Under the pieces are notes generated by a model. It was given only the letters and a program-made list of their open reading frames with translations, ran no database searches and was not told where the DNA came from. Shown here piece after piece: positions 10,511-63,217 of a stretch of DNA of 64,000 nt. The DNA lies in assembly GCA_051294375.1 (NCBI GenBank), contig CM119269.1, positions 10,351,056 to 10,415,055 on the forward strand, given 5' to 3'. The position numbers and the translations under genes are program-made. Numbering within the stretch: position 1 is the stretch's first letter; each line of letters begins with the position of its first letter. Origin of the DNA: Paraspadella gotoi (lineage: Eukaryota; Animalia; Chaetognatha).

Positions 10511-13500
10511 ATGGAGGTCGGATTCGGCATCGTCGATTACGTGATATTCAGCGGGACTTTGGTCGCATCAATGTTAATAGGTGGGACGACAAGAGGTGTA
10601 AGTTTAAACAATATTTTTTTTATGATATTATACATTAATCAAAAAGTAGGAAAAAAAATATCGGTCAGTCGAACAGACTCGCAGCTCAGTGAGATAAGAG
10701 AAATATTTAGATTGGATTTTTTAATTTTATTTATGTAGTAACAATATATTTGCCTACAATAAGAAAAAAATTCAATGACAATACGTACAACAACAAAATG
10801 CACAAGGATGTCCTTTAATATATTTATTTATTTATTTATTTATTTATTTATCGTTTGAGGCGTTTACCACGCTTACGTTCATCGCCACGGCGACGCCAAC
10901 GACTACCTGTTGGCGGGCGGCGACCAGTCGGCGATCCCGGTGGCGCTATCTCTCACCGCCACGCTGATTTCCGCCGTGACTACGCTCGGCTTTCCCGCTG
11001 AGGTGAAGCCGTGGGGTAGGGGGAGGGGAAGTTTAGGCAAGAAATGGTAGAGGGAGACAAGGATAATGATCAGGATATCATTTAGAAACTAATCATCAAT
11101 CAACACTCTGAACCTACCCGTTTTTGTTTTGTAGTTTTATCAATTTTATATGAAACGAATATCCGAAGCGACCGACCGAAGTGTTTTCTTCTAAAAATTT
11201 GTTTAAAGCTGTTCAAACTGATTAAGCCACGTCCTTAAAGGTCTTCCTGAAGGGCATGACGGTTGCCGGTTACGCCGGGGGGTCTCTCATCGGAGTCGTC
11301 GTCGCCGCCCTCTTCACCGTCCCCGTTTTCTTTCCCCTAAAATTCACTTCCATTTATTCTTATCTCGAGACGAGATTTCAAAGTCCCATCGTCAAGAAAA
11401 TCGCCGTCTTCAGCTTTTTTGTTCAGGTCCGTACGTTTCTGAATGACAGAGGCAATTTTTACCGGATGACGCTAAATGAGATGATGTGGCGAATCCTAAA
11501 TTTTCCTCCCGTATAACTTGTCCATTGGCTTGGACACCTAATTCATCGTTCACCGACCGTAGTTTCCGGGTTCAATCCCCTCACGGTTTACGCTGATTAA
11601 AGTGTTGACATAAACAAGCCATTAACAGCAAGCAGATCCAAAACCCTGGGCGCCCACTCTCCGGAGATGATTCAACCCTGGGTGTCACAAATGTTTCCCC
11701 GTTGCCGTAATAAAGTAGTGTTTTGTACAGTCTTGTGCAAAAAAAAAAAAAAAAAAAAAAAAGAAAAAGAAAATAAAAAAGAATACCCCACACAGTATTT
11801 TTTGCAGAAGATTGTATTACAGAACGATTAAACGTTGCGGCAAAGAACTCTATTGTCCCTTCTATCTCTCGCTCTTTTTTTCCCCTTCTATTCCTTTATA
11901 CTTTGCACTTTTCCCCACTCCTGTCTACGCACCCACTTTTTACTACTCCCCCCACCTGATCTCTTCCTCCCCATTTCCCCATTCACCCCTCTCCCACTTC
12001 TTTACCCAAGATGCATTTCTACATGGGCGTCTGCCTCTTCGGCCCAGCGGCGGCGCTCAACTCGGTCACGCCCATTCCCTCCTCCCTCGCGATCCTCATG
12101 TGTGGCGTCGTCTGTACGGCCTACACGTCCATCGGCGGGATGCGGTCCGTGCTGTGGACGGACACGTTTCAGTCGGCGACGATGTTCGCGGGGCTTATCG
12201 CGGTGCTGGCGATGGGGGGCCGCGCCTTTGATGGATTCGGCAACATCGTCAAGGCCAACGTGGTGGCAAGGAGACTGGAGGTGCTGCAATTGATACAATT
12301 TAATAGTTCTTGTCAGAAAAATAACTTATAAATTCTTTTTTAATAGCTTTCACAGGAAATTAAATATAAAAAAATTGGCCTCAAATTAAACAGATTATAT
12401 CTAATATAAAAATAATCCGGCATATCTATCAAAATTAGTATCATGACACCTAATGACCAAAAGTAATTTAATAACAGGTCCCTCATAAGTTCTGGTCGTT
12501 CGACCCGACAATACGCCACACTCTCTTTTCCACGCTCCTCGGAAGTTCCTTCATTTGGATGATGAGTATTGGATCGTCTCAATCCATTACTCAGAGAATA
12601 CTCTGCCTGAAAAATCCGAGAAAGGCCATTCTAACGGTAAAATTATCTTTTTTAAATAGTATTATTATGGATGGTCTTTATGTGTAAATCCGTTCTGTTT
12701 TACTGTGTTTGTAGATTATAAGACAGTTTAATTATTTGCAACAACAATTTATTATTAAAAGACGAACATGTTTCGGCTCGAATTCGAGCCTTCATCAGGT
12801 CTTTATAAAACTTTCGCAAAATTGTTACATACCTTTTGAGTTTTGTTTTTTAGCTCCGGTTGAAGCGACCTCTATTCTTGGTATGCCGCTTTTACACAAC
12901 AAAAGAACAGTTTTTATGATTGTTTCTCAGTTACTCAATATTGTTTTTGTTTTTATTTTTTACTATTAATAATACAATTTTTAACCCTATACTAAGATCG
13001 TTAACCAAATCAAAAAGAATAAGATAAAAAAAAAAGAAAGTGACAAAAAAACCCCTCAGTCCTCGGCCAAATAACTTGTAACTTTCTCCCAAAGACCTGT
13101 GCGGCCGCACCCATGTACGCCTTCTTCATGGTGATCGGGATGCTCTGTGGACTCGTCCTCTGCATTTCCTTCATTTTCTGCGATCCGCTTAAGACGGGTG
13201 TCCTCTCCAACCAAAACCAACTGCTTCCTTTCTTGGTGGCGCAATCATTTGGAAGCGTTCCCGGTCTCGCGGGTAAGGGGCTGTTAGAATTTTATTTGTA
13301 GTTCATTAATTGATTAATTAATTAATTGATTCTGAGTCCTTAGGTCCGTTGGTCTTGCTGGGGCGCAGTTGTTCTTCTTTCTTCTTGGGAGGCCGTTGAT
13401 CTGCCCCCAGAAGCCTTGTTACACTCCTTTTTATAGAAAAACTTTGCCTGCCCCTTCCTCTCTTAGATCGACGTATGTGCTGGGCAGGAAAACACTAAAC

Positions 13501-19500: not shown

Positions 19501-22500
19501 CTTCTTATTTCTTTCCGACACTATCCCAATATATGACACCAACCTTAACCCTCAACTGTCGCTTCCTAAACGCAATACACTTTTTATCCTTATCTCTTTG
19601 TTCACATCTTTATTTCTTTCTCACGCACGAAAGCGCCCAATAAAATTCCGTTCGAGAAAATGTTGCGGATGAAAAGTCGAGTTTTTATGAAGACAAATTC
19701 TCCTGGTCAAAAAAGAAAGAAAGAAACAAATGGACAAAATTTCTGGGCAGTGCCATGTTAAAAAATTGCGATGGCTTAGTGCGATCTTTGCACTGCTTAG
19801 TAGGGTGGCGTGATTGAACATTATTTTTTTGCTGCCTTTGGACAAGTAATTCATAAATTTTAAATACTTTAAAATTTTTTTAGCATAACAGTATAGTAAA
19901 TTAAATTATTTATGTAATAATATCCTTATAAAATCATTAAATTTCAAAATAATTTTTTAAATTTTTTTGTACTAATTAATCATACTATCTTACGTCCTTG
20001 TTTGAATATTCAAATAAATTTTTTTGTTCTTACGCGGTCAGTCGAACAGACTCGCGCTCAGTGAGATAAGAGAAATATTTTAGATTGGATTTTTTAATTT
20101 TTATTCTATGTTAGTAACAATATATTTGCCTACAATAAGAAAAAAATTCAATGACAATACGTACAACAACAAAATGCACAAGGATGTCCTTAATATATTT
20201 ATTTATTTTATTTATTTCATTATTATTTATTTATCGTTTTGAGGCGTTTACACGCTACGTTCATCGCCACGGCGACGCCGACGACTACCTGTTGGCGGGC
20301 GGCGACCAGTCGGCGATCCCGGTGGCGCTATCTCTTCACCGCCACGCTGATTTCCGCGTGACACGCTCGGCTTTCCCGCTGAGGTGAAGCCGTGGGGTAG
20401 GGGAGGGGAAGTTTAGGCAAGAAATTGGTAGAGGAGACAAGGATAATGATCAGGGATATCATTTAGAAACTAATCATCAATCAACACTTCTGAACCCTAC
20501 CCGTTTTTGTTTGTAGTTTTTATCAATTTTATATATGAAACGAATATCCTAAGCGACGACAGAAGTGTTTTTCTTCTAAAAATTTTTGTTTATAAGTTGT
20601 TCAAACTGATTAAGCCACGTCCTTAAAGGTCTTCCTGAAGGGCATGACGGTTGCCGGTTACGCCGGGGGGTCTCTCATCGGAGTCGTCGTCGCCGCCCTC
20701 TTCACCGTCCCCGTTTTCTTTTCCCCTCAAATTCACTTCCATTTATTCTTATCTCGAGACGAGATTTCAAAGTCCCATCGTCAAGAAAAATCGCCCGTCT
20801 TCAGCCTTTTTTGTTCAGGTCCGTACGTTCTGAATGACAGAGGCAATTTTTACCCGGATGACGCTAAATGAGATGATGTGGCGAATTCCTAAATTTTCCT
20901 CCGTATAACTTGTCCATTGGCTTGGACACCTAATATTCGTTCACCGACCGTAGTTTCCGGTTCAATCCCCTCACGGTTTACCGCTGATTAAAGTGTTGAC
21001 ATAAACAAGCCATTTAACAGCAAGCAGATCCAAAACCTGGCCCCACTCTCCGGAGAATGATTCCACCCTGGGTGTCACAAATGTTTTCCCCGTTGCCGTA
21101 ATAAAGTAGTGTTTTGTACAGTCTTGTGCAAAAAAAAAAAAAAAAAGAAAAAAAAAAAAATAAAAGAGAATACCCCACACAGTATTTTTTGCAGAAGATT
21201 GTATGTACAGAACGACTTAAACGTTGCGGCAAAGAACTCTATTGTCCCTTCTATCTCTCGCTCTTTTTTTCCCCTCTATTCCTTTATACTTTGCAACTTT
21301 TCCCACTCCTGTCCTACGCACCCACTTTTATACTCCCCCCACCTGATCTCTTCCTCCCCATTTCCCCATTCACCCCTCACTCTCCACTTCTTTTACCCAA
21401 GATGCATTTCTACATGGGGTCTGCCTCTTCGGCCCAGCGGCGGCCGCTCAACTCGGTCACGCCCATTCTCCCTCCTCCTCCGCGATCCTCATGTGTGGCG
21501 TGCGTCTGTACGGCCTACACGTCCATGCGGCGGGATGCGGTCCGTGTGTGGACGGACACGTTTCAGTCGCGACGATGGTTCGCGGGGCTTATCGCGGTGC
21601 TGGCGATGGGGGCGGCGCGCCTTTGATGGATTCGGCAACATCGTCAAGGCCAACGTGGTGGCAAGGAGACTGGAGGTGCTGCAATTGATAACAATTTAAT
21701 AGTTCTTGTTCAGAAAAAAAACTTATAAATCTTTTTTTTAATAGCTTTCACAGGAAATTAAATATAAAAAATTTGGCTCAAATTAAAAAGATTTATATCT
21801 AATATAAAATAATCCGGCATATCTATCAAAATTAGTATCATGGACACCTAATGACCAAAAGTAATTTTAATACAGGTCCCTCCATAAGTTCTGTCGTTCG
21901 CCCGACAATACGCCACAACTGCTCTTTTTCCACGCTCCTTCGGAAGTTCCTTCATTTGGATGATGAGTATTGGGATCGTCTCAATCCATTACTCAGAGAA
22001 TACTCTGCTGAAAAAATCCGAGAAAGCCATCTAACGGTAAAATTATCTTTTTTTAAAAATAGTATTATTATGGATGGTCTTTATGTGTAAATCGTTCTGT
22101 TTTTACTGTGTTTGTAGATTATAAGACAGTTTAATTTATTTGCAACAACAATTTATTATTAAAAGACGAACATGTTTCGGCCTCGAATTCGAGCCTTCAT
22201 CAGGTCTTTATAAAACTTTCGCAAAATTGTTACATACCTTTTGAGTTTTGTTTTTTAGCTCCGGTTGAAGCGACCTCTATTCTTGGTATGCCGCTTTTTA
22301 CACAACAAAAGAACAGTTTTTATGATTGTTTCTCAGTTACTCAATATTGTTTTTGTTTTTATTTTTTACTATAATAATACAATTTTTAACCTATACTAAG
22401 ATCGTTAACCAAATCAAAAAGAATAAGATAAAAAAAAAAACCCTCAGTCCTCGGCCAAATAACTTGTTAACTTTTCCCAAAGACCTGTGCGGCCGCACCC

Positions 22501-24428
22501 ATGTACGCCTTCTTCATGGTGATCGGGATGCTCTGTGGACTCGTCCTCTGCATTTCCTTCATTTTCTGCGATCCGCTTAAGACGGGTGTCCTCTCCAACC
22601 AAAACCAACTGCTTCCTTTCTTGGTGGCGCAATCATTTGGAAGCGTTCCGGTTCTCGCGGGTAAGGGGCTGTTAGAATTTTATTTGTAGTTCATTAATTG
22701 ATTAATTAATTAATTGATTCTGAGTCCTTAGGTCCGTTGGTCTTGCTGGGGCGCAGTTGTTCTTCTTTCTTCTTGGGGAGGCCGTTGATCTGCCCCCAGA
22801 AGCCTTGTTACACTCCTTTTTATAGAAAAACTTTGCCTGCCCCTTCCTCTCTTAGATCGACGTATGTGCTGGGCAGGAAAACACTAAACTGTGCGCTTGT
22901 CTTACAGACTAAGATGCTATCATGGTTGTAATTAATTTATCTATTACTATTATTTATTTTTGTACCCCGTTCTAATTCCCTTTTCCTAGTTTATTATTTA
23001 GGCTTAAGGGGAACAAGTGACCAGTGGGGGTAAAAGCTGAAAAGCATAACGTTTGGACCCTTTAACTTAAGCTAGTTCTGACTATATGATTCTTTCTTCT
23101 ATAATCATTTTGGAAAGTAGTAGAAAAATTCGATATAATCAGCGAGCTTAATTTCTTTTAAAAAATCGGTAAGAAAATAAATATTTTAAATTTTAATAAT
23201 TTTTATATAATATATGAAAAATGGAGGTAGGAGGAGGAGGAGAAGTGAAAGAGCGCAGAGGAAAAGAGGTGAAAAATTGTAAGAGGCAGAAAGAAAATAA
23301 AATCACAAACGCAGAATCTGTTATCGAAGACGACGACGAAGTGCTTAATCTTGGGCGCCGTTAATTGATTCGCTCAAGGCTTTCTCATAACGAATGGAAA
23401 ATTAGCCTAAGTAGTAGAGTGAAGCACTCNNNNNNNNNNNNNNNNNNNNNNNNNATCCTTATAAAATCATTAAATTTCAAAATATTTTTAAAAATTTTTT
23501 TGTACTAATTAATCATACTATCTCACGTCTAAATTGATTATTCAAATAAATTTTTTTGTTCTTGAGTGCTCCACTCTACTACTTAGGCTAATTTTCCATT
23601 CGTTATGAGAAAGCCTTGAGCGAATCAATTAACGGCGCCCAAGATTAAGCACTTCGTCGTCGTCTTCGATAACAGATTCTGCGTTTGTGATTTTATTTTC
23701 TTTCTGCCTCTTACAATTTTTCACCTCTTTCCTCTGCGCTCTTTCACTTCCTCCTCCTCCTTCTCCTCCTCCTCCTCTATTAGTTCGTCTCCGTCATCTC
23801 CGGCGCCATCGTCATCGGCATCGCCTTCGTGGTCGACGCTTCCGGCAGCAACATCTTCACTTTCGGCGTCAAACTGCAGTCGGTTATCGGCGGTTCTCTT
23901 TCCGCCATTTTCTTGGCCGCTTATTTCGTGAGGATCGTTACCGCCAGGGGCGTTGTGACCGGTGAGGTGTGGTTGAATAAAAGTGACGATAAAAATAAGT
24001 AATAAGTAATAAGCAATTTCGTTAATAAGATTTATTTATTTATTTTTTTTTTTCATTTTCGTAAAAAGTTGAGTTTTCCCTCGGGCCCTCCCCCCACAAA
24101 AAAACAATCAGCAATCGGAAGCAAGCAAGTAGTTAACATAAAACAGAATTAATCAAAGATTAAGAAGAAAAGAGGAAGGTGAGAAAATTAGGGGAGTGAA
24201 AGTACACGGAAATGAAAGTGAGAGGAGGTAAAGTAAATTAAGGAAAAGGTGAGAAATACGACACCACGAAAATTAGGAGGCAGCAAAAGAAAATAAAGCC
24301 AAAACAAAGAAAAACAAAAGAGAGGGCGTGAAAAAAAAAGATTCCTTTTAACACAAGAAATTCTGGAAGAAAAACTAAAAGATGTCGCAACGAAAGAAAA
24401 GCGAAGTTTTCAAAGATTAAATCAAAAA

Positions 24429-24481
<53 letters not shown>

Positions 24482-24869
24482 GTTCTCTCCCGACTGTCTC
24501 ATTCCCGACTCTCTTCTAACTTAGATCTAAGTTCTTTTTGACTAATCATGATCATCCAAACTTTAAAAAAAACTTAAAAAATTGAGATTTTAATCTTTAT
24601 AATTTAAATACAAATTCCGTCTTCCTTTCAGGCTGGGCGGCCTCCTTCGCTCTCAGCACTTGGGTGGTCATTGGCTCGGTCCTCTACCCGGCGAGGGAGA
24701 CCGACCTCTTGCCGACCTTCGTCGACGCCGAGCTCTGCAACGCCACCTCGGGCCTCGCGGTGACGGCGACGACCTTCTCCCTCGACAACTTCACGTCGAA
24801 GTTCGAGAGCGACTCTCGCGCGATGAGGATCATCGTTGAAGCCCTCGCGGATCGTTCCAGTGCTGATGG

Positions 24870-24901
<32 letters not shown>

Positions 24902-25733
24902 GGGCTCGGTTGGATGGCGAAGTCTCGAAGGCCTGGTGAAGGGTTGAAAGTATTTGCGAGTGTTTGGGTAGTGCAGGGGAGTGCTGGAGATTGCGTGGGA
25001 CTTCTTGGGAATGCTGGAGGGAGGCAAATATTTGTTGATGTTTATACATTGAACTCTTGTTGTTGGAGTGGGAGTGATGGTAAGGGGATGCCATAAAGGA
25101 TTCTCTCACTAAACGTGAACTGGCACGATACACCAGTGATGAGCGGTATTTATTGTAGAGAGCTCACCTCGGTTCGGCTTGAAACGGTTTGGGTAAGTTC
25201 AGTGGATATTGGAGATCAAATAAAGTTCTTGTGAAATCATGCTCAATCTGCAGCAAAAGGTAGGGACGGCCAAAGGCATCATTAATCATTTGAAATGCTT
25301 AGAATAAGGAACTAGGAAAATAGATCATAATATAAAACCCCGACACTGGCTGATCAATAATTATATCACGTGATTTGTATAAGAAAAGAGAAGGTTTAAT
25401 ACAAAATAACAAATAATGATTAATAATAATTAATCATAATCATACGTAAAGTTTTATTAATTATACACAGACGAAATAAGTTTATTTCCATTCCACGTTT
25501 GGCGAAAGTTTATGTCCAACATTGTCTCCGGCGAAAGTTTGATACAGAGAGTTCTTTCTCAACCTCGATATTAACTCTATATATCTCAACCTTTCAGAGT
25601 ACGAAGGATTCGCCATTTACAGACTGAGTTACCTTTTGGTCGGTGTTTTCTCAGCCGCCGTATTTATGGTCGTCGCCGTTGTCGTCAGTCTGTTGGACGG
25701 CGGGCTCGAAGTCGGTAAAAACATTGACTCGAG
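10511..25733 (+). CDS. SLC5A sodium:solute symporter (SMCT/SMVT/NIS-like)
   Basis: Exons at about 10511-10580 (MEVGFGIVDYVIFSGTLVASMLIG), 10860-11002 (DYLLAGGDQSAIPVALSLTATLISAVTTLGFPAE), 11241-11426 (TSIYSYLETRF), 12011-12280 (YTSIGGMRSVLWTDTFQ), ~12490-12636 (FDPTIRHTLF...QRILC), 13095-13272 (CDPLKTG...NQLLPFLV), 15536-~15687 (GLFVAAVFSSSLSTISSGINA), 23784-23961, 24632-~24868 and 25598-25733 (IYRLSYL). A possible terminal exon lies near 34124-34160. All carry typical SLC5 motifs; the subfamily cannot be resolved by eye. Confidence 0.85.
11505..11590 (+). mobile_element. tRNA-derived SINE-like fragment
   Basis: B-box-like GGGTTCAATCCCCTCACGG with a weak upstream A-box. The related GGGTTCAATCCCCTCGCGG occurs on the minus strand near 19175-19200. 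No complete cloverleaf. Confidence 0.35.
12758..12804 (-). ncRNA. Minimal type I hammerhead ribozyme-like motif (Penelope-like element relic)
   Basis: Minus strand reads AAAGAC-CTGATGA-A-GGCTCG-AATT-CGAGCC-GAAAC-AT-GTTC-GTCTTT: stem I, both core boxes and a perfect stem II. The cleavage-site region is atypical (GUUC). Followed by AATAAA. Confidence 0.65.
13916..13959 (+). ncRNA. Minimal type I hammerhead ribozyme (Penelope-like element type)
   Basis: AAACA-CTGATGA-A-GGCT-TGAACAAG-AGCC-GAAAC-AT-GTC-TGTTT: stem I AAACA/TGTTT, intact core, GUC cleavage triplet and palindromic ACATGT stem III. AATAAA lies just downstream. Confidence 0.8.
16614..17286. mobile_element. Putative non-autonomous Transib-like DNA transposon with RSS-like ends
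   Basis: Inverted CACAGTG termini, each followed after 23 or 24 nt by AGAAAAA. Flanks are GC-rich 5-mers CGTCG and CGGCC (imperfect TSD). The interior is extremely AT-rich and non-coding. Confidence 0.4.
20035..23190 (+). pseudogene. Indel-rich second copy of SLC5A exons 2-6 with their introns (copy of ~10660-13800); probable assembly artefact
   Basis: Colinear with 10660-13800 including introns, but with many 1-nt indels, often in homopolymers, that frameshift the exons. Ends next to the N-gap at 23430-23454. Confidence 0.7.
22162..22209 (-). ncRNA. Hammerhead-like motif, duplicate of 12758-12804 inside the duplicated block
   Basis: Same sequence as the 12.76 kb motif with one extra base in stem II. 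Confidence 0.5.
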
Positions 25734-27189
25734 GTAAGCAATTTCTTAGAATCGTCAACCAATCGATTTATTGGATTTGTCAGTTGAATCGATGATTTAA
25801 TATCAATCAAAGTTCAACAAATTAATTAATTAATTAAGTTAAATTTGTTTAATTAAATCTTTCAAAATCAATTCAATTAATTAAATAAGTTCGATAAATT
25901 TATTTTTAAAAAAATATGGAAAAAGGGTTAGCCCTATGTCTATCAAAAAGATTTAATCNNNNNNNNNNCTATATATCTCAACCTTTCAGAGTACGAAGGA
26001 TTCGCCATTTACAGACTGAGTTACCTTTTGGTCGGTGTTTTCTCAGCCGCCGTATTTATGGTCGTCGCCGTTGTCGTCAGTCTGTTGGACGGCGGGCTCG
26101 AAGTCGGTAAAAACATTGACTCGAGGTAAGCAATTTCTTAGAATCGTCAACCAATCGATTTATTGGATTTGTCAGTTGAATCGATGATTTAATATCAATC
26201 AAAGTTCAACAAATTAATTAATTAATTAAGTTAAATTTGTTTAGATTTTGTGCAAAAGAGAGTGTGAGAGAGAGAGGAGAAAGAGAGAGAGAGAGAGGGT
26301 AAAAGTTTTTCCAAAAAGTAGTGAGACAGAATAGTGGTCAGATGTGAGGACAGGTTGAAGGTGAGGGCAGATTGAGTGATTGTGTTTTCACTAAAAAGGG
26401 ATTAAATCCTTTCTCTCTCTCTCTCTCTCTCTCTCTTTTTCTCTCTCTCCGAGTCTCCTCCTCTTCCTCTCACCTTCTCTTATTTGTAAATTTTTTTTTT
26501 TTTACCTCACCACAATTTCTCTGGCCTTGAATAATGAACCAGCTAAATGGTTTGAATGCATGGTCCTAAATAAAATTAGCACTGTTTCCCAAATCGATGT
26601 TTTTCTATATCAAACTATTCGTGCATGAGATGACACTTTAACAATCCTATATTATTATTATACAATTTTAATTTCAGCTTAAAATACAGGTTTTGTTTAT
26701 ATTTGATCAACTTAATGAAGAATTTAACATTTATTGGTTATTAGTACTATGGCCTACTGTATAAATTGTAAAATTATTATAAATTTTTTTTATACATAGA
26801 TGTTTATTAGTATAATGTTTTTGTTCTGACTTTTAGAATTTAATTAAAGTTAAATTTAGAATTTTTACTACGCTTAGTAGTCATGTCACATCATGTCACA
26901 TCATGTCATGATAAATACACATGATAAGGCATCAACGGTGGCGCAACACATTTGAATTACCGTTCTTGTTTATTCATTTTTTCAATTCCCTTTAATAGGT
27001 CCTAGTTTTAACAATGTATCCAAGCGAATTTAATCTGAAAGAAACCAATCTTTTATACAATTATGTTGGTATGACATGATTAATTTTTATGCTGCTAATT
27101 GGAAAAACAATGGACTCATAAACTCTTCAAAACCATATCGTGTTAGTAACTTGAATATTTATAAGAGGATTTATTAGCTTATTTACAGC

Positions 27190-27942: not shown

Positions 27943-28150
27943 CACCAACCGTTCATCAGTGGCCATTGTGCACGAGGCAAGTCATTCGCCTCCCAACCCA
28001 AAAGAGTCAGGGCGACCCGTGGCACGCGTGCAGTTAGCCATGAGGCGCTTAACCCCCTGTAACCGTGTTACACCTTTATCCGAAGCTCAGGGACTGCTTA
28101 TTATTGAACGGTTCTGTCATTAACACCATAACAACCTATTACTGTCTCTT
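27943..28150 (+). repeat. Degenerate copy of the structured ~235-nt dispersed element
   Basis: Shares caccaaccgttcatcagtggccatt...ccgaagctcagggactgc...attgaacggttctgtc with the copies at 28.3, 42.3 and 57.4 kb. Confidence 0.75.
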
Positions 28151-28291: not shown

Positions 28292-28526
28292 TATGGTGGA
28301 CTAAAATCCACCAACCGTTCAATCAGTGGCCATTGGTGCCGGAGGCAAGTCATTTCGCCTCCCAAACCAAAGGTCTGGGGTTCTAGCCCGGTGGCCGCCT
28401 AGCAGTTAAGAGGGGCGGGGCGCTTAACCCGCCTGTAACACGGTGTTACAGCCTGATCCGAAGCTCAGGATGCTTTTATTGAACGGTTCTGTCATTAACA
28501 CATAACAATAATTACTATCTCTTCAG
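28292..28526 (+). repeat. Structured ~235-nt dispersed element (full copy)
   Basis: Runs from tatggtggactaaaatccacca to ctcttcag, with several hairpins and the long-range pair aaccgttcaat/attgaacggtt. Confidence 0.85.
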
Positions 28527-31639: not shown

Positions 31640-32584
31640 ATTTTGTACTAATTAATCATACTATCTTACGTCCTTGTTTGACTATTCAAATAAATTTTTT
31701 TGTCTTGAGTGCTCCACTCTACTACTTAGGCTAATTTTCCATTCGTTATGAGAAAGCCTTGAGCGAATCAATTAACGGCGCCCAAGATTAAGCACTTCGT
31801 CGTCGTCTTCGATAACAGATTCTGCGTTTGTGATTTTATTTTCTTTCTGCCTCTTACAATTTTTCACCTCTTTCCTCTGCGCTCTTTCACTTCCCTCCTC
31901 CTCCTCCTCCTCCTCCTCCTCCTCCTCCTCCTCCTCCTCTATTAGTTCGTCTCCGTCATCTCCGGCGCCATCGTCATCGGCATCGCCTTCGTGGTCGACG
32001 CTTCCCGGCAGCAACATCTTCACTTCGGCGTCAAACTGCAGTCGTTATCGGCGGTTCTCTTTCCGCCATTTTCTTGGCCGCTTATTTCGTGAGGATCGTT
32101 ACCGCCAGGGGCGTTGTGACCGGTGAGGTGTGGTTGAATAAAAGTGACGATAAAAATAAGTAATAAGTAATAAGCAATTTCGTTAATAAGATTTATTATT
32201 TATTTTTTTTTTTTCATTTCGTAAAAAGTTGAGTTTTCCCTCGGCCTCCCCCCCACAAAAAAACAATCAGCAATCGGAAGCAAGCAAGTAGTTAACATAA
32301 AAACAGAATTAATCAAAGATTAAGAGAAAAAGAGGAAGGTGAGAAAATTAGGGAGTGAAAGTACACGGAAATGGAAAGTGAGAGGAGGTAAGTAAATTAA
32401 GGAAAAGGTGAGAAATACGACACCACGAAAATTAGGAGGCAGCAAAGAAAATAAAGCCAAAACAACGAAAAACAAAAGAGAGGCGTGAAAAAAAAGATTC
32501 CTTTTAACACAAGAAATTCTGGAAGAAAACTAAAAAGATGTCGCAACGAAAGAAAAGCGAAGTTTTCAAAGATTAAATCAAAAA

Positions 32585-32646
<62 letters not shown>

Positions 32647-34105
32647 CTCTCCCGACTGTCCTCATTCCCGACTCTCTTCTAACTTAGATCTAAGTTCTTT
32701 TTGACTAATCATGATCATCCCAAATAAACTTAAAAAATTGAGATCTTTTAACTTATAATTTAAATACAAATTCCGTCTTCCTTTCAGGCTGGGCGGCCTC
32801 CTTCGCTCTCAGCACTTGGGTGGTTCATTGGCTCGGTCCTCTACCCGGCGAGGGAGACGACCTCTTGCCGACCTTCGTCGACGCCGAGCTCTGCAACGCC
32901 ACCTCGGCCTCACGTGACGGGCGACGCCCTTCTCCCTCGACAACTTCACGTCGAAGTTCGAGAGCGACTCTCGCGCGATGAGGATCATCGTTGAAGCCTC
33001 GCGGATTCGTTCCAGTGCTGATGGTGATGATGATGATGATGATGATGTGATGATTGGCTCGGTTGGATGGCGAAGTCTCGAAGGCCTGTGAAGGGTTGAA
33101 AGTATTTGCGAGTGTTTGGGTAGTGCAGGGGAGTGCTGGAGATTGCGTGGGACTTCTTGGAATGCTTGGAGGGAGGCAAATATTTGTTGATGTTATACAT
33201 TGAACTCTTGTTGTTGGAGTGGGAGTGATGGTAAGGGGATGCAATAAAGGATTCTCTCACTAAACGTGAACTGGCACGATACACAGTGATGAGCGGTATT
33301 TATTGTAGAGAGCTCACCTCGGTTCGGCTTGAAACGGTTTGGGTAAGTTCAGTGGATATTGGAGATCAAATAAAGTTCTTGTGAAATCATGCTCAATCTG
33401 CAGCAAAAGGTAGGGACGGCCAAAGCATCATTAATCATTTGAAATGCTTAGAATAAGGAACTAGAAAATAGATAATAATATAAAACCCCGACACTGGCTG
33501 ATCAAATAATTATATACACGTGATTTGTATAAGAAAAGAGAAGGTTTATACAAAATAACAAATGATGATTAAGAATAATTAATCATAATCATACGTAAAG
33601 TTTTATTAATTATACACAGACGAAATAAGTTTATTTCCATTCCACGTTTGGCGAAAGTTTATGTCCAACATTTGTCTCCGGCGAAATTTGATACAGAGAT
33701 TTCTTTCTCAACCTCGATATTAACTCTATATATCTCAAACCTTTCAGAGTACGAAGGATTCGCCATTTACAGACTGAGTTACCTTTGGTCGGTGTTTCTC
33801 AGCCGCCGTATTTATGGTCGTCGCCGTTGTCGTCAGTCTGTTGGACGGCGGGCTCGAAGTCGGTAAAAACATTGACTCGAGGTAAGCAATTTCTTAGATC
33901 GTCAACCAATCGATTATTTGGATTTGTCAGTTGAATCGATGATTTAATATCAATCGAAGTTCAACAAATTAATTAATTAATTAAGTTAAATTTGTTTTAA
34001 TTAAATCTTTCAAAATCAATTCAATTAATTTAAATAAGTTCGATAAATTTATTTAAAAAAATATGGAAAAGGGTTAGCCCTATGTCTTTCAAAAAGATTT
34101 AATCT
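31640..34105 (+). pseudogene. Indel-rich second copy of SLC5A exons 8-10 with their introns (copy of ~23490-25958); probable assembly artefact
   Basis: Near-identical to 23490-25958, with scattered 1-nt indels that break the frames. Confidence 0.7.
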
Positions 34106-38320: not shown

Positions 38321-41168
38321 CTCTCTATCTCTTTCTCTCTCAGTCTGAAAGGGGGAATCAATTAAACTTCCGTCACTATGAGGATGTAGCTTAAAAAACA
38401 CTTTCGCCGGTCCCTCTGATGTCGTTAAATTCAAGTTTAACGGTTCATGTACATCTTTTGAAAGATGATGATAAAAAAAAAGTGTTTTCTATTTCTTTCA
38501 ATCGAGTCTAACTCGCTATCTATCGTATTCATTCTTTCTCTTATTATCTCCAATCTCGCTGAATATCAGTTTGTGTTTATTCACAGGACGATCAGGACGA
38601 CTCGTTACAGTCCGCCAGCCCCACCCTTCAGAATAAAACACTCTCGGAGTCGAAGGCAAAAGTAAAATATAAATAAATATAAAAAATATAAAAATATAAT
38701 GCTAGACAACTAAATACTAAATAATAACTCCAGAAAGATCGAATGGAGCGATGCTGTCTATTAATAGTAGTAATACTATCAAGTCCGAATTAAGTTATAA
38801 CCGAATTTTTTCAGGCCGACCACGGAAAAAAAGTAAAAGTAGCAACGGAGATGGAGAAAACTTCAACAGCTAAAACAGACGTGACCGAAAAGTCCGACGC
38901 GTCGTCGTCGTTATCAAAACAGCAAGTAAGTTTGAATTAAAAACAAAAGCGAAAAGGCGCCACCGAGACTCGAACTCGGGATCTCTTGTTTACAAGACAA
39001 GCGCTTTTACCAACTAAGCCATGGCGCCCTGCCCGATATCTTAACCTCAGCACAAACGGAGTTTCGAGGAAGAGATGGAATACGTCCTTCGAGAGACGCC
39101 CTTCCGGTGGCGGATCAGAAAAGGTTTTGTCCCCAATATGATTGTCGACGGCGTATTCTTCGTCAACAAGCATCTCGAAGAACTTACCTTCGAGGAGCTG
39201 GCAACGTCGACCCGACCAGAAGGCAATCCGGGTGGCTTCGTGCCCGCCCTCAAACAGATCGCCAACGTGGCGGCGTTACCAGGCATCGTGACGTACTCCA
39301 TCGGGCTGCCCGACGTTCACTCCGGATACGGATTCGCCATCGGCAACGTTGCCGCCTTCGACATGAACGATCCTGAGGCTGTTGTCTCGCCTGGTGAATC
39401 TTGGATTAAACGATATAAAGATGAATATAGATAAATATAGGAATGAAGGAATCTGAAAAAATTTTCAGAATTGTCATTCTGACAAAGCGATATTATTCAT
39501 TGATTGAATTTCTTTCGTCTTTACTTGCCAGCAGTAAAATAATAAAAATGAATAACTTCATTTTATTTAATTTAAATTTTAAGAAAACGCTATAATTCAA
39601 TAGATTTCAATGAAATGATATGATGTTTCAATAACTTTCTCCGCCTGTGGGCATTAAAGTTTCCTACTTATCCCACCAGGCGGCGTCGGATTCGATATCA
39701 ACTGTGGCGTCCGTTTGATCCGTACCAACCTGACGGAGGCGGAGGTGTCGCCAGTCAGAGAGGAGTTGGCCCAGGCGCTCTTCGATCACATCCCGGTCGG
39801 CGTCGGAGCCCACGGCATCATCCCCATGACGAGCAAAGAGATCGACGACGCCATCGAACAAGGCGTCGACTGGTGCGTGAAAAAGGGCTATGCCTGGCCC
39901 GAGGACGGCAGGCACTGCGAGGAGCAGGGCCGCATGCCCAACGCCGACCCGTCCAAGGTCAGCGAGCGGGCCAAGAAGCGGGGCCTGCCGCAGCTCGGCA
40001 CTCTCGGTGCGGGGAACCACTACGGAGAGGTGCAAGTCGTCGAGGAGATTTTCGACGCTCAAGCCGCGGAGGCGATGGGCATCAAGAGCGTTGGGCAGGT
40101 GGTGCTGATGATCCATTGCGGCAGTCGAGGACTGGGTCATCAAGTGGCCACCGACGCGTTAATTAACATGGAGAAAGTGATGAAGGCCCAAGGCGTGGCC
40201 GTCAACGATCGGCAATTGGCCTGTGCCAGGATCGATTCGCCAGAGGGACAGAACTACTTGGCGAGCATGGCGGCCGCCGCCAACTACGCCTGGGTTAATC
40301 GATCTTCTATCACATACACAGCGAGGGAGGCCTTCTCTAAGGTGAGGAGAAAAAAAAGGCGTTTCTCATTGTTCTTTGTTTGATTATTTTGTTTGCAAAC
40401 CACTCATTAGCTAATGGTCCGTTCAAGTCGCATTTTAATTTGTTAATCACATGGCTCATAAATTTTTAAAAATCAAATACGTAACAGGTTCTAGAAAAAT
40501 CTTATTTGCTTTGGCAGGTCTTTAAGAAATCCCCCCGCGACTTGGACATGCACGTCGTTTATGACGTGTCACACAACATCGCCAAGATTGAAGATCACAT
40601 CGTCAACGGCGAACCAAAGAAGCTCCTCGTCCACCGCAAAGGCTCCACCAGAGCCTTTCCCCCGGGCGACGACAGGATCCCGGAAGATTACAAAGAGATT
40701 GGGCAGCCCATTCTCATCGGCGGCACGATGGGGACGTGTTCTTACGTGTTGACAGGGACGGAGGAGGGTATGCCAATCGGGGCTAAGTTCATGATGTTCT
40801 ACTAAATTTCTTACATATCGTCAGATATTTATATTATATACATTATATTAAGTCAAGTTTTTTTTCGTTTAATATCATTAAAAAAAACTCTCTCCCTTCC
40901 AGGAATGAGGACGACCTTCGGCTCGACGTGTCACGGTGCCGGTCGCGTCCTCTCGCGCGCCCGAAGTCGACGCGAGCTCGATTCCGACGCCATCTTGCGG
41001 CGTCTCCAAGAAAAGAAGATCGCCATCCGCGTGGCGTCGCCCAAACTGGTGATGGAGGAGGCGCCCGAGTCTTACAAGAACGTGGACGAGGTCATCGAGA
41101 CGTGTCACGCGGCCGGCATCTCTAAGAAGACGCTCAAGCTGAGGCCAATCGCCGTCATTAAAGGATGA
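35601..41168 (+). CDS. RTCB: RNA-splicing ligase RtcB (tRNA/XBP1 ligase catalytic subunit) with a predicted N-terminal extension
   Basis: Core exons 39051-39393, 39680-40341, 40518-40767 and 40903-41168 encode [64 protein letters not shown] and the C-terminus LRPIAVIKG*. Metal-binding residues and the guanylated His are present. Less certain upstream in-frame phase-0 exons are 35601-35720, 35961-36032, 37995-38102, 38587-38661 and 38815-38925. An alternative ATG is at 38851. Confidence 0.95.
36092..37530. mobile_element. Non-autonomous TA-flanked DNA transposon (Tc1/mariner/pogo-type) in an RtcB intron
   Basis: ~27-bp TIR CCATGATGGA(8-9)GTGTCGCGG at both ends. TA on both sides (36090-91 and 37531-32). 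No transposase ORF. Confidence 0.8.
37616..37658 (+). ncRNA. Minimal type I hammerhead ribozyme-like motif in an RtcB intron
   Basis: AACG-CTGATGA-A-GACTC-GTAACAA-GAGTC-GAAAC-AA-GTA-CATT. Core intact. Stem II covaries relative to the other copies (GACTC/GAGTC vs GGCTC/GAGCC). GUA triplet; one mismatch in stem I. Confidence 0.7.
38955..39028 (-). tRNA. tRNA-Thr (anticodon TGT), intronless, antisense within an RtcB intron
   Basis: Minus strand GGCGCCATGGCTTAGTTGGTAAAAGCGCTTGTCTTGTAAACAAGAGATCCCGAGTTCGAGTCTCGGTGGCGCCT. Acceptor stem GGCGCCA/TGGCGCC, A box, anticodon arm CTTGT-CT[TGT]AA-ACAAG, T arm CCGAG-TTCGAGT-CTCGG, then T-runs (Pol III terminator). Confidence 0.95.
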
Positions 41169-42257: not shown

Positions 42258-42478
42258 TGGTTGATGGACTAAAATTCATCAAAAAAAAAAATCCAGCGAC
42301 CATTTGTGCAGGAGGCAAGTCATTCGCCTCCCAACCCAAAGATCCGGGGTTCTGGCACGGTGGTTGCCTAGCGCTTACCCCCCCTGTAACACGATGTTAC
42401 AGCCTGATCCGAAGCTCAGGGACTGCTTATATTGAACGGTTCTGTCATTAACACGCAACAACCATTACTGTCTCTTCA
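42258..42478 (+). repeat. Partially deleted copy of the structured dispersed element
   Basis: ggaggcaagtcattcgcctcccaacccaaag...ctgtaacacgatgttacagcctgatccgaagctcagggactgcttatattgaacggttctgtc. Confidence 0.8.
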
Positions 42479-56999: not shown

Positions 57000-59900
57000 A
57001 TGGAAGGAGCAGAAGTAATCTTTTTGTTTGCTCTTGTTTTGTCATTTTCGAATGCGGCTATCAATCTGAAATTTGGGAAAAACTTTGAAACTTCCGCCTT
57101 TATTGACGAGTTAAAAAAAATAAATTTGAGAAACACGAGGTAATTCAAGTTAGAGGAACCAAAAGCAACCAACAGATGAATTATTAAAAAAAAAAAATTG
57201 CTTGTAGGTTACATAAAAATGATGAGCCTGAGCTTATGATCAATCGGGCAAACGACTGTCAAATAGCCTGTCAATACACTCCGTCAAGTGTCCTTCAGCA
57301 TCGCATGGATATTTGGAGCTGCGGATGGCGAACTCATTCCAGCATTCCTGGCATCGACTTCCGGAAAAAACCAGGTATTATGGTGGACTAAAATTCACCA
57401 ACCGTTCATCAGCGGCCATTGGTGCCGGAGGCAAGTCATTCGCCTCCCAACCCAAATGTCCGGGGTTCTAGCCCGGTGGCCGCCTAGTAGTTAAGAGGGA
57501 CGGGGCGCTTAACCCGTCTGTAACACGGTGTTACAGCCTGATCCGAAGCTCAGGGACTGCTTATATTGAACGGTTCTGTCACTATCACATAACAATAATT
57601 ACTGTCTCTTCAGTATCAAGTTGGTGAAGATCCCTCGAAGTCTGAAGGGAAAACTCACGTTTACGTAATAATAGCCCAAAGTTCATTTTTTCCTTGTCCA
57701 TTAAGTAATGTAAATAAGTTCTGTAATGTAAACATATTCAAGTATCGTTTAAAGATAACGAAAATAGAAAACAGAAGGGAAAGAGTGAGGAGATAAGGCG
57801 GTTTTTTCTGTATACACTATACAATATAAACTATACAGTATACACTACACTGTTTTCTTTTTGTTTCAGGTTGTGAGAACCTTACAAAAGTTATGATGAA
57901 TAATGCAACTACCCTAAAAGAAGAAAAGATGAAAAACGTGCAAAACAAAACTTTCTCGCTTCTTTTTACGAATCTTGGATTAAAAAACTTGGAAGATTTT
58001 TTTTTAGAAGATTTTTATAATTTAATAGGTCTCATGTTCATGCAAAATAATATTAAAAATATTAAAAAAAACACGTTTAAAATGAAAGGAGGAAGCCAAA
58101 TGATATTTCTGATTTTATTGAATAACGGAATCGATAACCTCGATCAACTAGTTTTCAAAGAATTAAGGTGTTTGTCTTTTATACTGATAAGAGAAAATAT
58201 TTCATTGAACATAACATCGGAAACTTTCGGCGTATTGAATTTTTTAAATTATTTAGATTTATCGAAAATATATAACTTAACGATAACACCTGACGCTTTC
58301 AGGAATAACTATTTTTTGCACTTTTTGAAAATTGCGGGAACCCAACTATCAACTTTTGAAATGGAAAGGTTTTTTGGTAATCCTTTTTCTCAACACAATT
58401 TTTTAAGTGTGGATAATAATTTAATCCGTGAATTAAGATTTACTTACAAAAATCCAATGCCTGTACGAATTGTTTCTGCAGAAAACAATTCGATATCCAA
58501 AATATCAGAAAGTACATTCAAAAAACTGACAAAAACTCAGGAGCTTTTTCTTCTGGGCAACCCAATTGAAACTATAGGCAAAAACGCATTTTCGTTTTTG
58601 ACAAGACGAGGCTCAACAATATCAATTGGTTGCGGACGATTCTACAGAAAAAATCTGAAAATGAAATTGCACCAAGATGCTTTTAAAAATATTGTTGATA
58701 TTTCATCTCTGACCATAGAGGGATGTTTGTCGGAATTAAAAGATAATACTTTGTACAATATTTCAATAATAAGTTTAATCATTAAAAAAAATCTAGATTT
58801 GGAAAAGATTTTCAACAAATCATTTTATGGGGTACGGAATACAATAAATTTAGACTTAAGTTACAATAATTTAAATTTTATTGATGAGCTGGCTTTTGTT
58901 TCATTCTCAGAATTAAAAACCCTAAGATTAGACAATAACAATTTGAAAAACTTGTATCCAAGTTTATTTGATCAGGCAACATCTCTTAAAAACGTTAACT
59001 TAGCTAATAATCGACTTGGAAGTATCCCAGAAACCTTATTTAAAAATCAAATGAATTTACAACAATTAAATTTGGAAAAAAACTCTCTTTCTAGCTTTAA
59101 AAAAAAATTTTTTAATGGTACAAAATATTTAAAAATTCTCATTCTAAATAACAATAATTTTAATGCGATGCACCAAAATTGGATGTTTGAATTGAAAGAT
59201 TTATACCAATTAGACTTGTCAAATAATTTCATTACTAATATTTACGATATATATTTAAATTCTGATATCTTACATGATTTAGATTTGAGTTATAACTTAC
59301 TTGTTACAATCCCATCTGACGTATTTATCCATGTATCATATATCAAGAAATTGAATCTACGAGGGAATAAAATCATGCATTTTGAGCCGCTATCATTCGT
59401 AAAGCATCTTACATTTCTGGATATAAGTTACAATAACATTTCAAATTTGAATGGATTTTTCTCTAAAACTGATATTTTTCAACCAAGCCAAAAGATTACT
59501 GTTCTGTTAAACAATAACTTATTGAAAGAAATAGCTCTTAATGAATTTCTATACTTTGCAAGTGATTTATACCTCAATCTAAGCAGTAATTATTTGACAA
59601 ATACATTATTTCTTGATATAAATTTTGGGAAATTACCGAAATCAGTAGATTTTAGTTATAACAACATTAAATCTCTATCCAAAAGTAACATTGATACTTT
59701 ACAAAAAATTCATTCCGTTTTTTTGCTTGGCAACAAATGGCGATGTGACTGCGAAAATCTAGCACTCATGTATTATTTATCTACTTTTAAAATTTTTCCT
59801 TGTTGTCCGCCCGGTTGTGATTGTTATATAGAAGTACAACAGTTGACAAGACATTTTGTTATCAACTGTTCCTTCACGAAACAGCCAGATCTACCTCCCT

Positions 59901-61912
59901 GCATTCCGTTTCCTAACTCAATAGTTTATTACTCTAACAACAACAAGACTGAGTTAACATTTTCAGAAGCCCTGAAGCAAATAAGTTGGCTTGATATTTC
60001 TTTCAACAACATCTCTCGCATCCATAAGGACGCCGTATCGCAAATGTACAACCTTAATTTTTTAGATTTAAGGAACAATCAATTGTCAACGGTTCCCACC
60101 GAATTACAGAATTTGATTTTTTTGAATCTGAAACTGAGCAATAATCCATTTAATTGCTTTAATGATTGTTTGTTGGTCCAATACCTCATGGACAAATCTA
60201 AATATGAGCCAATCACTTGTAAAGACACAGACATCAAGTGTGCTTATCAAACATGCCGCATAAAACGAACCATTATCCCCATCTCGTTATCAACCATTTT
60301 AGGTGTTTTGGCCATTTTGTCGCTGTTTCTGCTTTCCCGGCACTTTTATCTCCTGTACCTACTCAAAAGGTATTGCAGTCCTCTGAATCGACGTTTCTCA
60401 TCAAAAAAAAGGTTTCAGTATGAAAAAAAGATTGCCTTGAAGTTCAACCATCAAAACCTGCTCAAAATGTCAGCCACGGTTTATACTTGGAACCCATTAT
60501 TAAAGTTTAAAGGTTACATATTTTTCGAAACCACAGATCAAAGGCTTTTGAATTTCTTAGCTTTTATCTCCGAAGAATATCAGGGACTAAAACTACATTT
60601 TATTCGCGTTGAACTCATCAAGCAGCTCATGTTAGCTCTTGATCATCTTAATTCGTTGACGACTCCCGTTCGCCACAATCGAGTCACCGTCGATAGCATA
60701 AACTTGAAATTTCGTGAAAATCACTTCACCCTTAAGTTGTGCGATTTCGCCGCCGCAGAGTTCGTTGCAGCGGATACCGGTAACTACAATGCTGATATGA
60801 TATCATCAAGTACGGTGATTAGTGCTATCATCAGCAGCGGCTGCGATCGATTAAGAAATGTCGAGTTCCTGGTCCTCATCAAATGTCTCATCGAGAAAGG
60901 CTTTAGCGCCCGCGATGCACTGAATTGTCCAGCATTAAAGAGCATGTCGTCCAAGATCCTAGAAGTCGGACTCCTCAACGAGTTAATGATAGAGGGCGCA
61001 CACGACCCGGAGCGCGTTAATGCAGAAAAAAACGTAGAACTGGTCATTGGAAAGCGCGGGGCCTGGCACAAACTGATTGATCGGCGCCTGTTGCAGACTT
61101 TTGCCGGCAGAGGTCGAGGATATCGCGTCTCATCCTTTTCCGGTTTGTTGCGCTTTTCACGCAACGTTGTTCATCACGCTCATCAGAGGAGAAACAAGGA
61201 TGTTTTTCGTCAATTATGCGGAAGCGAGGAGTCAGATCCTCAACCAGTCGATATATTCTACTGCCTCCTTAGCCCCTTTCCCTTTTTTTACTGCCATTGC
61301 CTTTCAGTTCTGCAACAGATGGGCCACGTTGATTCGAATGACGAGGTCTTTGTTTCGACATACAATGCTTACGAGAGGGAAGCCTTTGAGGTAGCCTCCG
61401 TGGAGGCAGCCCAAAATGGGTCATCCCTCGAAGTTAATCTCGGTAGGCATGTCCCTACGGATCCCGACGCTGCCAGGACATGGCGTCTTAGTTTTCCCGA
61501 GAATAGAACGGTGATTCAAGCAGCGCCACTCAGGACGCGCCTACTCGTAATAGCCGAGAAGGTTTTTCCAGGAATTGATTTGGCCAAAATTGTCGTCAAG
61601 GACGACGAATTTGGAGCCGTCCTTCCTCTGACGGGCGAATCGTCAAGGTCGTCGCAACCGATACTGGACGGGTCGACGTTGACTATGTCATTGATGGAGG
61701 CGCGAGTCAGAATCGGCGTTGAAGGCAAAGTTGAGACTTTTGAATTCAAAGAGGCTTACAATGTTCAGGCGTTGGTTGGGCCGTTGGCCGGAAAGGAAGG
61801 AAAGAAGGTGAAGGAGGCTGAGATTTTGCTGAATGGCGAGCGAATCGGAATTAAGACGAGGATCTTGGAGACAGCATTCCAAGAACATATCTTTCAACTT
61901 AATTTTGAGTGA
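57000..61912 (+). CDS. Toll-like LRR transmembrane receptor with cytosolic RNase L/IRE1-like pseudokinase, KEN ribonuclease and ubiquitin-like domain(s); ~1449 aa, 3 exons
   Basis: Exon 1 57000-57139 (signal peptide MEGAEVIFLFALVLSFSNA; upstream in-frame ATG at 56988), exon 2 57208-57374 and exon 3 57870-61912 join in frame via GT-AG introns of phase 2 and 1. Features in order: many LxxLxLxxN repeats, NKWRCDC, CCPPGCDC, NPFNC, TM TIIPISLSTILGVLAILSLFLLS, kinase remnants (HQNLLKM, YIFFE, HNR, LKLCDFA), KEN motif GYRVSSFSGLLRFSRNVVHH and a C-terminal ubiquitin-like pattern. Confidence 0.9.
57379..57613 (+). repeat. Structured ~235-nt dispersed element inserted at the start of intron 2 of the LRR-KEN gene
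   Basis: Highly similar to 28292-28526. Begins 4 nt into the intron (donor GT at 57375). Confidence 0.85.
60940..61325 (+). other. KEN (kinase-extension nuclease, HEPN-like) ribonuclease domain
   Basis: W(HKLID)...Y-x9-R-x2-RNxxHH...F(YCLLSP)FP. Tyr codon at 61121, RN at 61160-61165, last His ending at 61177. Same spacing as the IRE1 catalytic Tyr/Arg/Asn/His. Confidence 0.85.
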
Positions 61913-62546
61913 ATTTTGTATGTTATGTATGTCTTTTTTTTTTTATTTACCTGTGCTTGTAGCTTACCTCCACTTTCTAAATTGTATAAGATTTGGTGCA
62001 TTGTAGAATATTTTTTTCTTAACCGACTTTGTAGCTTATGCTTTATGTACTGTTGTAAAAATAAATGTCTACCATAAAGAAGTTTATATTTTTTGTTTTC
62101 ATTTAAGTATTGTACTTTAGTATATACTACTCGGCCCCTGGTGTTGAGCTATGGAGCGCCCACTAAAGGGACTGAAATCTTTACCCCCTGGACTCTGAAG
62201 CCACCCCAACCAGAGGGATTATTTTCTTTGCAAGATACTCTGGCGCATTATAATTCTATGCCCCAGGGGGATAAACTAAGGAGTTTGAAATTTTGTATTG
62301 TTTTTAAATATTTTGTAATACAATTTCCTTTAAGTCTTTAATTGAAAGAAAAAAAATTATAATTTTTTTTTTACAACAATGATTTCTTATTGGAAAAACA
62401 AAAACATGTTTATTGTTTTTTCAACAAAAAATCGTTGCTGTAAACAAAATTATATACTTTGTTTTCTCTTAATCAAAACTTAACAAAAAAAAGCAAAATA
62501 CCAAGTCTTTAATTATATTTAATAAATTAAAAAATCTTAATTAATA

Positions 62547-63005
62547 TTATGAAATTGGTACAACCAATATAAAAATTATCCATTCATTTAATAAATAAGC
62601 TATCTTGCCCCTGACTTTGGACAGGCTTTGGTGGTTTAAGGCCTCCATCACTCTTACAAGATAATGACATAGTAGGTCCCTGCAAGCTTTCAATCAAGAC
62701 TATCTCACACTCTCACATCTCACTCTCACAGTCTCGTTTATTCACTCCCAGAGTACCTGGCTTCCCTATCAATGAAGTGGTATAATATTTCAAAGAATGT
62801 TTCAATTGTATGAAAAGACCACTCCCTTAAGTATTAGATCGGGGAATACTTATTGTACTCCGCACTAGCATCAAAATACAAGGAGCTGAATTTTATGAAA
62901 TTGGTACAACCAATATAAAAATTATCCATTCATTTAATAAATAAGCTATCTTGCCCCTGACTTTGGACAGGCTTTGGTGGTTTAAGGCCTCCATCACTCT
63001 TACAA
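62547..63005. repeat. 113-bp perfect direct repeat (62547-62659 and 62893-63005)
   Basis: ttatgaaattggtacaacc...ccatcactcttacaa occurs twice, 233 nt apart. Confidence 0.9.
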
Positions 63006-63217
63006 AATATATTATAATATTTTTTACAATTAAATAAGTATTTTGAATTAAAAAAATACATAAAAAAATTAAACTTAAATTATAAAAATAAATAAATAAT
63101 AAATAAGTAATAGATAAATAATAATAAAATGAAAAAAAATAATCATAACTTATAGTAATTTAATATAAAAGTATTTTAAGAACTGTTATAAAGAGAGTCA
63201 TCTCATGCACTGAGTAG

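Follow-up and report, generated by a model that had tools for sequence, protein, structure and literature searches.

Toll-type receptors signal via TIR adaptors to transcription, and to our knowledge IRE1 and RNase L cleave RNA only as dimers or oligomers. The locus studied here raises the question of whether an animal has joined the two systems on one chain, and what such a chain would do. It lies in a 64,000-nucleotide stretch of the chaetognath Paraspadella gotoi (GenBank assembly GCA_051294375.1, contig CM119269.1, positions 10,351,056 to 10,415,055 of the forward strand), called the window below, in which an earlier note had described a leucine-rich repeat (LRR) receptor of Toll type whose TIR domain is replaced by a pseudokinase and a KEN ribonuclease domain. 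We found that the architecture of this receptor is real and supported by a family of relatives, and that it is apparently undescribed. We suggest that it is a single-pass Toll-like LRR receptor that is clustered by a ligand so that two KEN domains pair and RNA is cut, probably in innate immunity, a reading to which we give a probability of about 0.58.

The gene and its parts, including one transmembrane (TM) helix and a ubiquitin-like (Ubl) tail, are placed in the window as follows.

57000-61912, forward strand: receptor gene, predicted, three exons, 1449 amino acids, single terminal stop
57000..57139, forward strand: exon 1, predicted, with the start codon and signal peptide (about residues 1-19, 57000-57056); GT donor after it, hydropathy peak 1.86
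57208..57374, forward strand: exon 2, predicted, cysteine cap at the N-terminal end of the LRRs; AG/GT ends, phases matching both neighbours
57379..57612, unstranded: interspersed 235-bp high-copy repeat within intron 2, outside the protein; very high contig depth, loose ends at both borders
57870..61912, forward strand: exon 3, one open frame with the LRRs, TM helix, pseudokinase, KEN domain and Ubl tail
57875..59731, forward strand: LRR block 1, about 20 repeats, from Pfam LRR_8 and a relaxed motif count
59732..59917, forward strand: internal LRRCT then LRRNT, forming the second cysteine cluster; NKWRCDC at 59732 and CCPPGCDC at 59801, the same pair as in relative P0003
59918..60256, forward strand: LRR block 2 (3 motif matches) and juxtamembrane LRRCT; LRR_8 expectation value (E) 1.8e-08, NPFNCFNDC at 60143
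60269..60337 (about), forward strand: single TM helix; hydropathy 2.38 over 19 residues, where no other internal peak exceeds 1.7
60404..60937, forward strand: truncated pseudokinase, about 180 amino acids; C-lobe confident, Gly-rich loop unrecognisable, HRD and DFG degenerate
60938..61345, forward strand: KEN (Ribonuc_2-5A) RNase domain, from Pfam above cut-off, family profile and fold match
61421..61693, forward strand: tail unit 1, probable ubiquitin-like (beta-grasp) fold; strand-strand-helix-strand-strand-strand, predicted local distance difference test (pLDDT) of the block 68-90
61694..61909, forward strand: tail unit 2, ubiquitin-like fold by fold match, no terminal di-glycine
62060..62065, forward strand: candidate polyadenylation signal AATAAA, the sole such hexamer in the 290 bases past the stop, a weak signal in AT-rich DNA

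The ATG at 57000 begins a hydrophobic stretch like a signal peptide, and GT-AG boundaries with in-phase joining were found for all three exons (the splicing is predicted). Exon 2 has separate support, as its pattern of Cys and Trp aligns with that of P0003. The frame at 57830-61912 runs for 1360 codons without a stop, while the longest frame in 300 base shuffles had 166. Every element that the earlier note had seen, from the signal peptide through the LRRs, LRRCT, second cysteine cap, about three more LRRs, LRRCT and TM helix to the degenerate kinase and the KEN motif, was found in its place. Its domain order thus stands, and its account of the gene has to be amended by two 5' introns, the absence of a confident kinase N-lobe and a Ubl tail of about 165 amino acids, which it did not contain.

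The LRR and KEN halves could have been brought together by a faulty join, a concern of the earlier note. This is excluded by the 1360-codon frame, by bridging contigs of four other data sets and by P0003, which is related to the receptor from end to end. In data set X1, which may be the window's own source, 57590-62566 is found on a single 4977-base contig. Of the 11 runs listed, eight were compared with the window. Contigs of X5 (59756-60458), X6 (60082-60746), X7 (60148-60865) and X9 (60189-61063) run across the TM junction. X7/X8 comes from a different individual than the window, because four sites in exon 3 differ between them (three amino-acid changes and one silent, no stop). X5, X6 and X9 hardly differ from it and may come from close relatives. 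None of the five exon 3 variants checked contained a stop. The fusion of the LRR and KEN halves is therefore real at the DNA level and is not a mis-join. It is also old, because distant relatives have it too; a tree of 17 KEN rows without an outgroup places the window protein on a long branch with its group unresolved and does not date the fusion.

In the ectodomain, Pfam recognised LRR_8 at E 6.8e-38, and a relaxed LRR motif scan gave 26 matches, 23 of which were within the two LRR blocks (about 23 LRRs). A cysteine-bearing insert near 58620-58730 in block 1 is aligned in P0003, and a similar motif is visible in relative P0004. The order LRR-CT-NT-LRR-CT had been recognised as the multiple-cysteine-cluster layout of Toll-type receptors, and both the three motifs and a collinear match to Drosophila Toll bear this out. 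Among the best 60 of 249 solved LRR matches, Drosophila Toll was the sole entry whose best stretch spans both cysteine clusters (query 346-768). A hydropathy peak like the TM helix is also present in P0003, P0004 and P0006. Past the membrane, the 510 cytosolic residues are filled by the kinase-KEN part and the Ubl tail. The proposed replacement of the TIR domain agrees with the Pfam scan of the receptor protein, in which no TIR was found among families up to E 1, nor any ankyrin, and in which Ribonuc_2-5A exceeded its cut-off (27.6 bits on the isolated region, cut-off 23.3).

The evidence for the nuclease is centred on the KEN domain, with its RNVVHH motif at 61160. In the 1449-residue model its catalytic residues are Y1187, R1200, N1201 and H1205, spaced 0/+13/+14/+18. 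This equals the spacing in yeast Ire1, which according to excerpts of PMC3149027 uses Y1043, R1056, N1057 and H1061 and cleaves as a symmetric dimer. R, N and H are kept in all 15 rows of alignment A3 that reach the KEN domain, at about 26-35% identity to the window protein over this domain; in the Tyr column, Y stands in 10 of these rows, H in 4 and Q in 1. Invariance of R, N and H at about 30% identity would be expected only under selection for catalysis. The alignment of the family profile with human IRE1 extends across the active-site motif (E 1.6e-06), and a search of the solved structures with the single KEN sequence gave no match.

The fold agrees with the motif. A cytosolic model built from a 16-row alignment reached a pLDDT of 79.9 and a predicted template modelling score (pTM) of 0.75, while the single-sequence fold of the same part (pLDDT 33.6) was unusable. 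In a fold comparison of this model, IRE1 came first (Z 20.3, root-mean-square deviation (rmsd) 4.8, 291 residues aligned) and RNase L second (Z 17.8, rmsd 4.7, 260 aligned). Together they occupied the top 40 of the 50 rows, at Z 16.7-20.3, and the next fold had 13.1, so that the KEN fold suspected around 60940-61325 is indeed predicted there. In a second comparison, with 48,161 structure representatives, the two were again first and second. A homodimer prediction for the pseudokinase-KEN part, for which the alignment was unused, scored 0.00 and weighs neither way. In these alignments, P0018 and P0020, which are ordinary kinases, were left out of all, and P0006 and P0008, which have repeated units, were left out of A3; P0016 has no KEN part.

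The kinase preceding the KEN domain is far more reduced. Pfam gave Pkinase an E of 0.003 (17.4 bits, below the cut-off of 31.7). In the model, residues 50-190 can be overlaid on kinase structures (Z 10-11), and residues 1-50, the region of the N-lobe, are of low confidence. Only about 25 residues separate the TM helix from an alphaC-like helix, and therefore a normal Gly-rich loop does not fit. The receptor has HNR for HRD and DFA for DFG, and Asp is found in one of eight family rows in the HRD-Asp column and in two of ten in the DFG-Asp column.

Past the KEN domain, about 165 amino acids form two beta-rich units, one a confirmed and one a probable ubiquitin-like fold. Unit 2 matched five Ubl entries at Z 9.7-10.2 (rmsd 1.8-2.5, 68-75 residues), among them the parkin Ubl domain at Z 10.2 (rmsd 1.9, 71 of 76 residues). 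All six of its profile matches were to Ubl or SUMO, at weak values (E 0.04-0.28); these alone were used from alignment A5, which misplaces the start of the window's tail. Weak added support for Ubl came from Atlas leads below the recognition mark and from Pfam on relative P0005 (E 3.3e-4). Unit 1 had no direct fold match among the rows listed, and the order of its secondary structure makes it probably ubiquitin-like. A profile comparison of units 1 and 2 was not significant.

An index-free search with the 510 cytosolic residues against 1.84 billion representatives gave 19 matches, 17 in the family and two ordinary kinases. The family matches are on contigs of at most 6.6 kb from ENA, Logan or JGI, 15 unnamed and two with generic names; NCBI or UniRef is given as a source for none of them. 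Word-seeded protein searches gave no relatives, or only two ordinary IRE1-like proteins among 8000 candidates, and these blanks reflect divergence, because the index-free search did find relatives. Indeed the relatives are highly diverged (24-26% identity). P0003 (1457 amino acids) has the signal peptide, both cysteine clusters, TM helix, pseudokinase, KEN domain and tail, and a single unbroken alignment with the receptor covers residues 60-1448 (24% identity, E 4e-84). It forms one frame on a 4980-base contig, spanning parts that are separate exons in the window gene, and this contig would fit an mRNA. P0004 (1393 amino acids) has LRRs, a TM helix, a kinase-like region and a KEN domain, and P0006 is a fragment from the last LRRs on, with LRRCT and TM helix. 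The junction from LRR to TM helix to kinase is the same in all three. In P0006 and P0008 the kinase C-lobe unit is repeated and helical units of degenerate sequence are added; the catalytic RNxxxH is present in the last KEN only.

A further relative, P0026, is one predicted protein in which an LRR-Roc (Roco-type) part and two TM-like helices are followed by the same pseudokinase-KEN-Ubl cassette. In its cluster, P0023 is shorter and lacks the cassette, while P0010 and P0021 consist of the cassette only. Because the cassette is present on both an LRR-TM receptor and a Roco-type protein, it appears to be a movable effector. In metagenome and viral contigs, family patterns gave 84 and 131 pattern matches and no confirmed locus. 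NCBIfam had no match, and PHROGs a single weak one to a family of unknown function. Nothing points to a viral origin; in the viral fold library, the matches were to single domains only, ubiquitin and kinase. In X10 and X11, from two other species, there was no match at 80% likeness, which is no proof of absence.

How does the receptor compare with the systems from which its parts are known? Its closest fold is IRE1/ERN1 (PDB 6w3k, 3fbv, 2rio; Z about 20), with which it shares type I topology, an outer sensor, one TM helix, a cytosolic kinase fold with KEN, and the four catalytic residues at equal spacing. However, its ectodomain consists of LRRs throughout instead of a luminal sensor of unfolded proteins, its kinase is truncated with degenerate catalytic motifs, it has a Ubl tail, and identity is about 20%. 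RNase L (PDB 4o1o, 4oav; Z 17-18) likewise places a repeat sensor, pseudokinase and KEN on one chain, but it is cytosolic, with ankyrin repeats, the 2-5A second messenger and a full N-lobe, whereas the receptor spans the membrane and has LRRs and no ankyrin. With the multiple-cysteine-cluster Toll of Drosophila (PDB 4lxr) it shares the signal peptide, long LRR block, LRRCT-LRRNT, short LRR block, LRRCT and TM helix, and the match is collinear over both clusters (E 6.5e-20). Unlike Toll it has no TIR, hence no MyD88-type relay from the chain, and has a built-in enzyme as effector. The receptor is thus a member of neither IRE1, RNase L nor Toll, the last for want of a TIR.

The earlier note knew of no animal family with this architecture, and among the titles and abstracts listed by full-text searches of the open-access literature, none described an LRR receptor with KEN. 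In Table 1 of Anantharaman et al. (2013, PMC3710099), the partners of KEN are kinase, ankyrin, CCCH, ubiquitin-like and BRCT domains, and its lineage-specific expansions are predicted to be defensive RNases. Excerpts of that paper name no LRR or receptor ectodomain for KEN, their sole mention of LRRs concerning the DZIP3 HEPN family, and describe high divergence as a pattern typical of defence genes. According to the main text of PMC10400998, RNase L requires OAS and 2-5A and is restricted to jawed vertebrates. The same text has no mention of LRR, leucine or transmembrane; the architectures in its Fig. 2 and its supplement are outside this statement and may matter for novelty. It also offers an analogy limited to the tail: OASL, an innate-immunity protein of RNA pathways, has two tandem C-terminal Ubl domains, but its sensor has a nucleotidyltransferase fold.

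Toll-type ectodomains dimerise upon binding ligand. We propose that the receptor would be located at the surface or in endosomes, where a microbial or danger ligand would be bound, and that the ectodomain and TM helix would drive ligand-induced clustering. The short juxtamembrane link would relay this clustering to the dead kinase C-lobe, a spacer about 25 residues from the membrane, and two KEN domains would then come together as an active site that cleaves RNA in the vicinity. The output may be RNA decay followed by translation arrest or cell death, with the Ubl tail perhaps serving as a docking or regulatory module. Activation by self-association is described for both IRE1 and RNase L in excerpts of PMC3149027 and PMC5927464, the latter adding that the kinase N-lobe aids dimerisation of RNase L. 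Because this N-lobe is reduced in our protein, the receptor itself probably supplies the pairing. We favour an immune role because of the rapid divergence and the exchange of the cassette between LRR-TM and Roco sensors. A bolder version is tentative, at somewhat short of even odds: an animal family, so far undescribed, of immune receptors with one component, in which a Toll-derived ectodomain would sense a pathogen and directly fire an RNase L-like nuclease without TIR, adaptor, transcription or second messenger, the cassette being a swappable death or shut-off effector also used on Roco GTPase sensors.

Several points weigh against this reading. The kinase N-lobe is missing or of low confidence, and therefore the known activation route cannot apply unchanged. 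Among the best 60 of 249 solved matches, ALS, LRRC15 and LGR4/5 outscore Toll on the LRRs, and P0004 has a single cysteine cluster only. On sequence grounds, the LRR matches do not establish a Toll ancestry of the ectodomain or an immune function, and many invertebrate Tolls work in development. There is no paralogue within the window and none at 85% DNA likeness over kinase-KEN in X1, so that an expansion in this genome is not shown. The gene is in no listed RNA run, and its expression and splicing are predicted. X7, the sole run with the gene that was guessed as RNA, has contigs identical to those of the DNA run X8, and the two are one data set filed twice, probably DNA rather than RNA.

With an identical anatomy, the protein could also be a ligand-gated RNase receptor for development or cell contact. 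Its cue would then be endogenous, for instance a Spaetzle-like cytokine or a partner in adhesion, and its output local mRNA decay or IRE1-like non-conventional splicing. The lack of paralogues would fit this, as would the second-best solved LRR match, 8suf, the ectodomain of a TIR-domain receptor which we take to be TOL-1 of nematodes, a receptor that acts in development. The RtcB ligase gene 16 kb upstream might be added, but a neighbourhood at that distance is weak evidence in a eukaryote, and relatives as divergent as these, with a cassette moving between sensors, suit conflict more; we consider this explanation unlikely. It is improbable, too, that we are dealing with an IRE1 paralogue of the endoplasmic reticulum (ER) or secretory pathway, whose luminal LRRs would detect glycoproteins that are misfolded or foreign, and which would then have ER-bound mRNA degraded. 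IRE1 has the same topology of signal peptide, luminal sensor, TM helix and kinase-KEN, and its fold is the closest. However, surface and endosomal receptors are where capped LRR horseshoes with cysteine clusters of Toll type are typically found, and the kinase required for regulation of IRE1 is degenerate.

If the KEN domain were not a nuclease, the cytosolic part might be a scaffold that signals via its pseudokinase and ubiquitin-like domains, or might merely bind RNA. The truncated kinase and the extra degenerate units of P0006 and P0008, with RNxxxH in the last KEN only, could be read in this way, but the invariant R, N and H in the KEN rows could not, and we regard it as very improbable. 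An assembly chimera or unexpressed pseudogene is hardly credible. It might be suspected from the lack of RNA evidence and from the G+C content at third codon positions (GC3), which within exon 3 (57872-61909) is 0.30 for the LRRs, 0.50 for kinase-KEN and 0.54 for the tail, compared to 0.79 in an RtcB exon. Against it stand the long frame, the junction bridged in X5, X6, X7/X8 and X9 and shared by P0003, P0004 and P0006, and exon 3 variants free of stops. Mis-assembly is largely refuted.

The rest of the window is intron-containing, microsatellite-rich eukaryotic DNA. The RtcB RNA-ligase gene, recognised by Pfam, contains introns and extends over about 39045-41168 on the forward strand; just ahead of its first recognised coding piece, the opposite strand carries a tRNA-Thr(TGT) gene (38954-39029). 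RtcB ligates RNA cut by IRE1. A functional link between the two genes was considered and not adopted, and their proximity is probably due to chance. Near-identical duplications were found at 10662-13822 / 20035-23210 (94.7%), which carries sodium:solute symporter exons, and at 23498-25958 / 31641-34104 (95.4%); they may be recent or represent uncollapsed haplotypes. The 235-bp repeat of intron 2 resembles a short interspersed element (SINE) or a miniature inverted-repeat transposable element (MITE) and has further copies at 28292-28526, 42262-42478 and 27943-28150; Rfam gave no match at the intron 2 copy. A 121-bp piece of a high-copy repeat is duplicated at 62543-62663 and 62889-63009, each copy scoring 25.8 bits for the twister-P5 ribozyme, below the cut-off of 37.6. 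At 3453-6068 on the forward strand, low-complexity frames rich in Ala, Ser and Pro resemble exons of regulatory proteins and have no convincing Pfam match.

If the receptor works as we suggest, an extracellular LRR sensor acting directly on a KEN RNase would link the Toll and RNase L routes by a shortcut, and would give an invertebrate type of RNA decay triggered by ligand. Its architecture shows the effector module of IRE1 in use with unrelated sensors, LRR-TM in this receptor and Roco in P0026, and the receptor may offer a natural template for ligand-gated RNase receptors.

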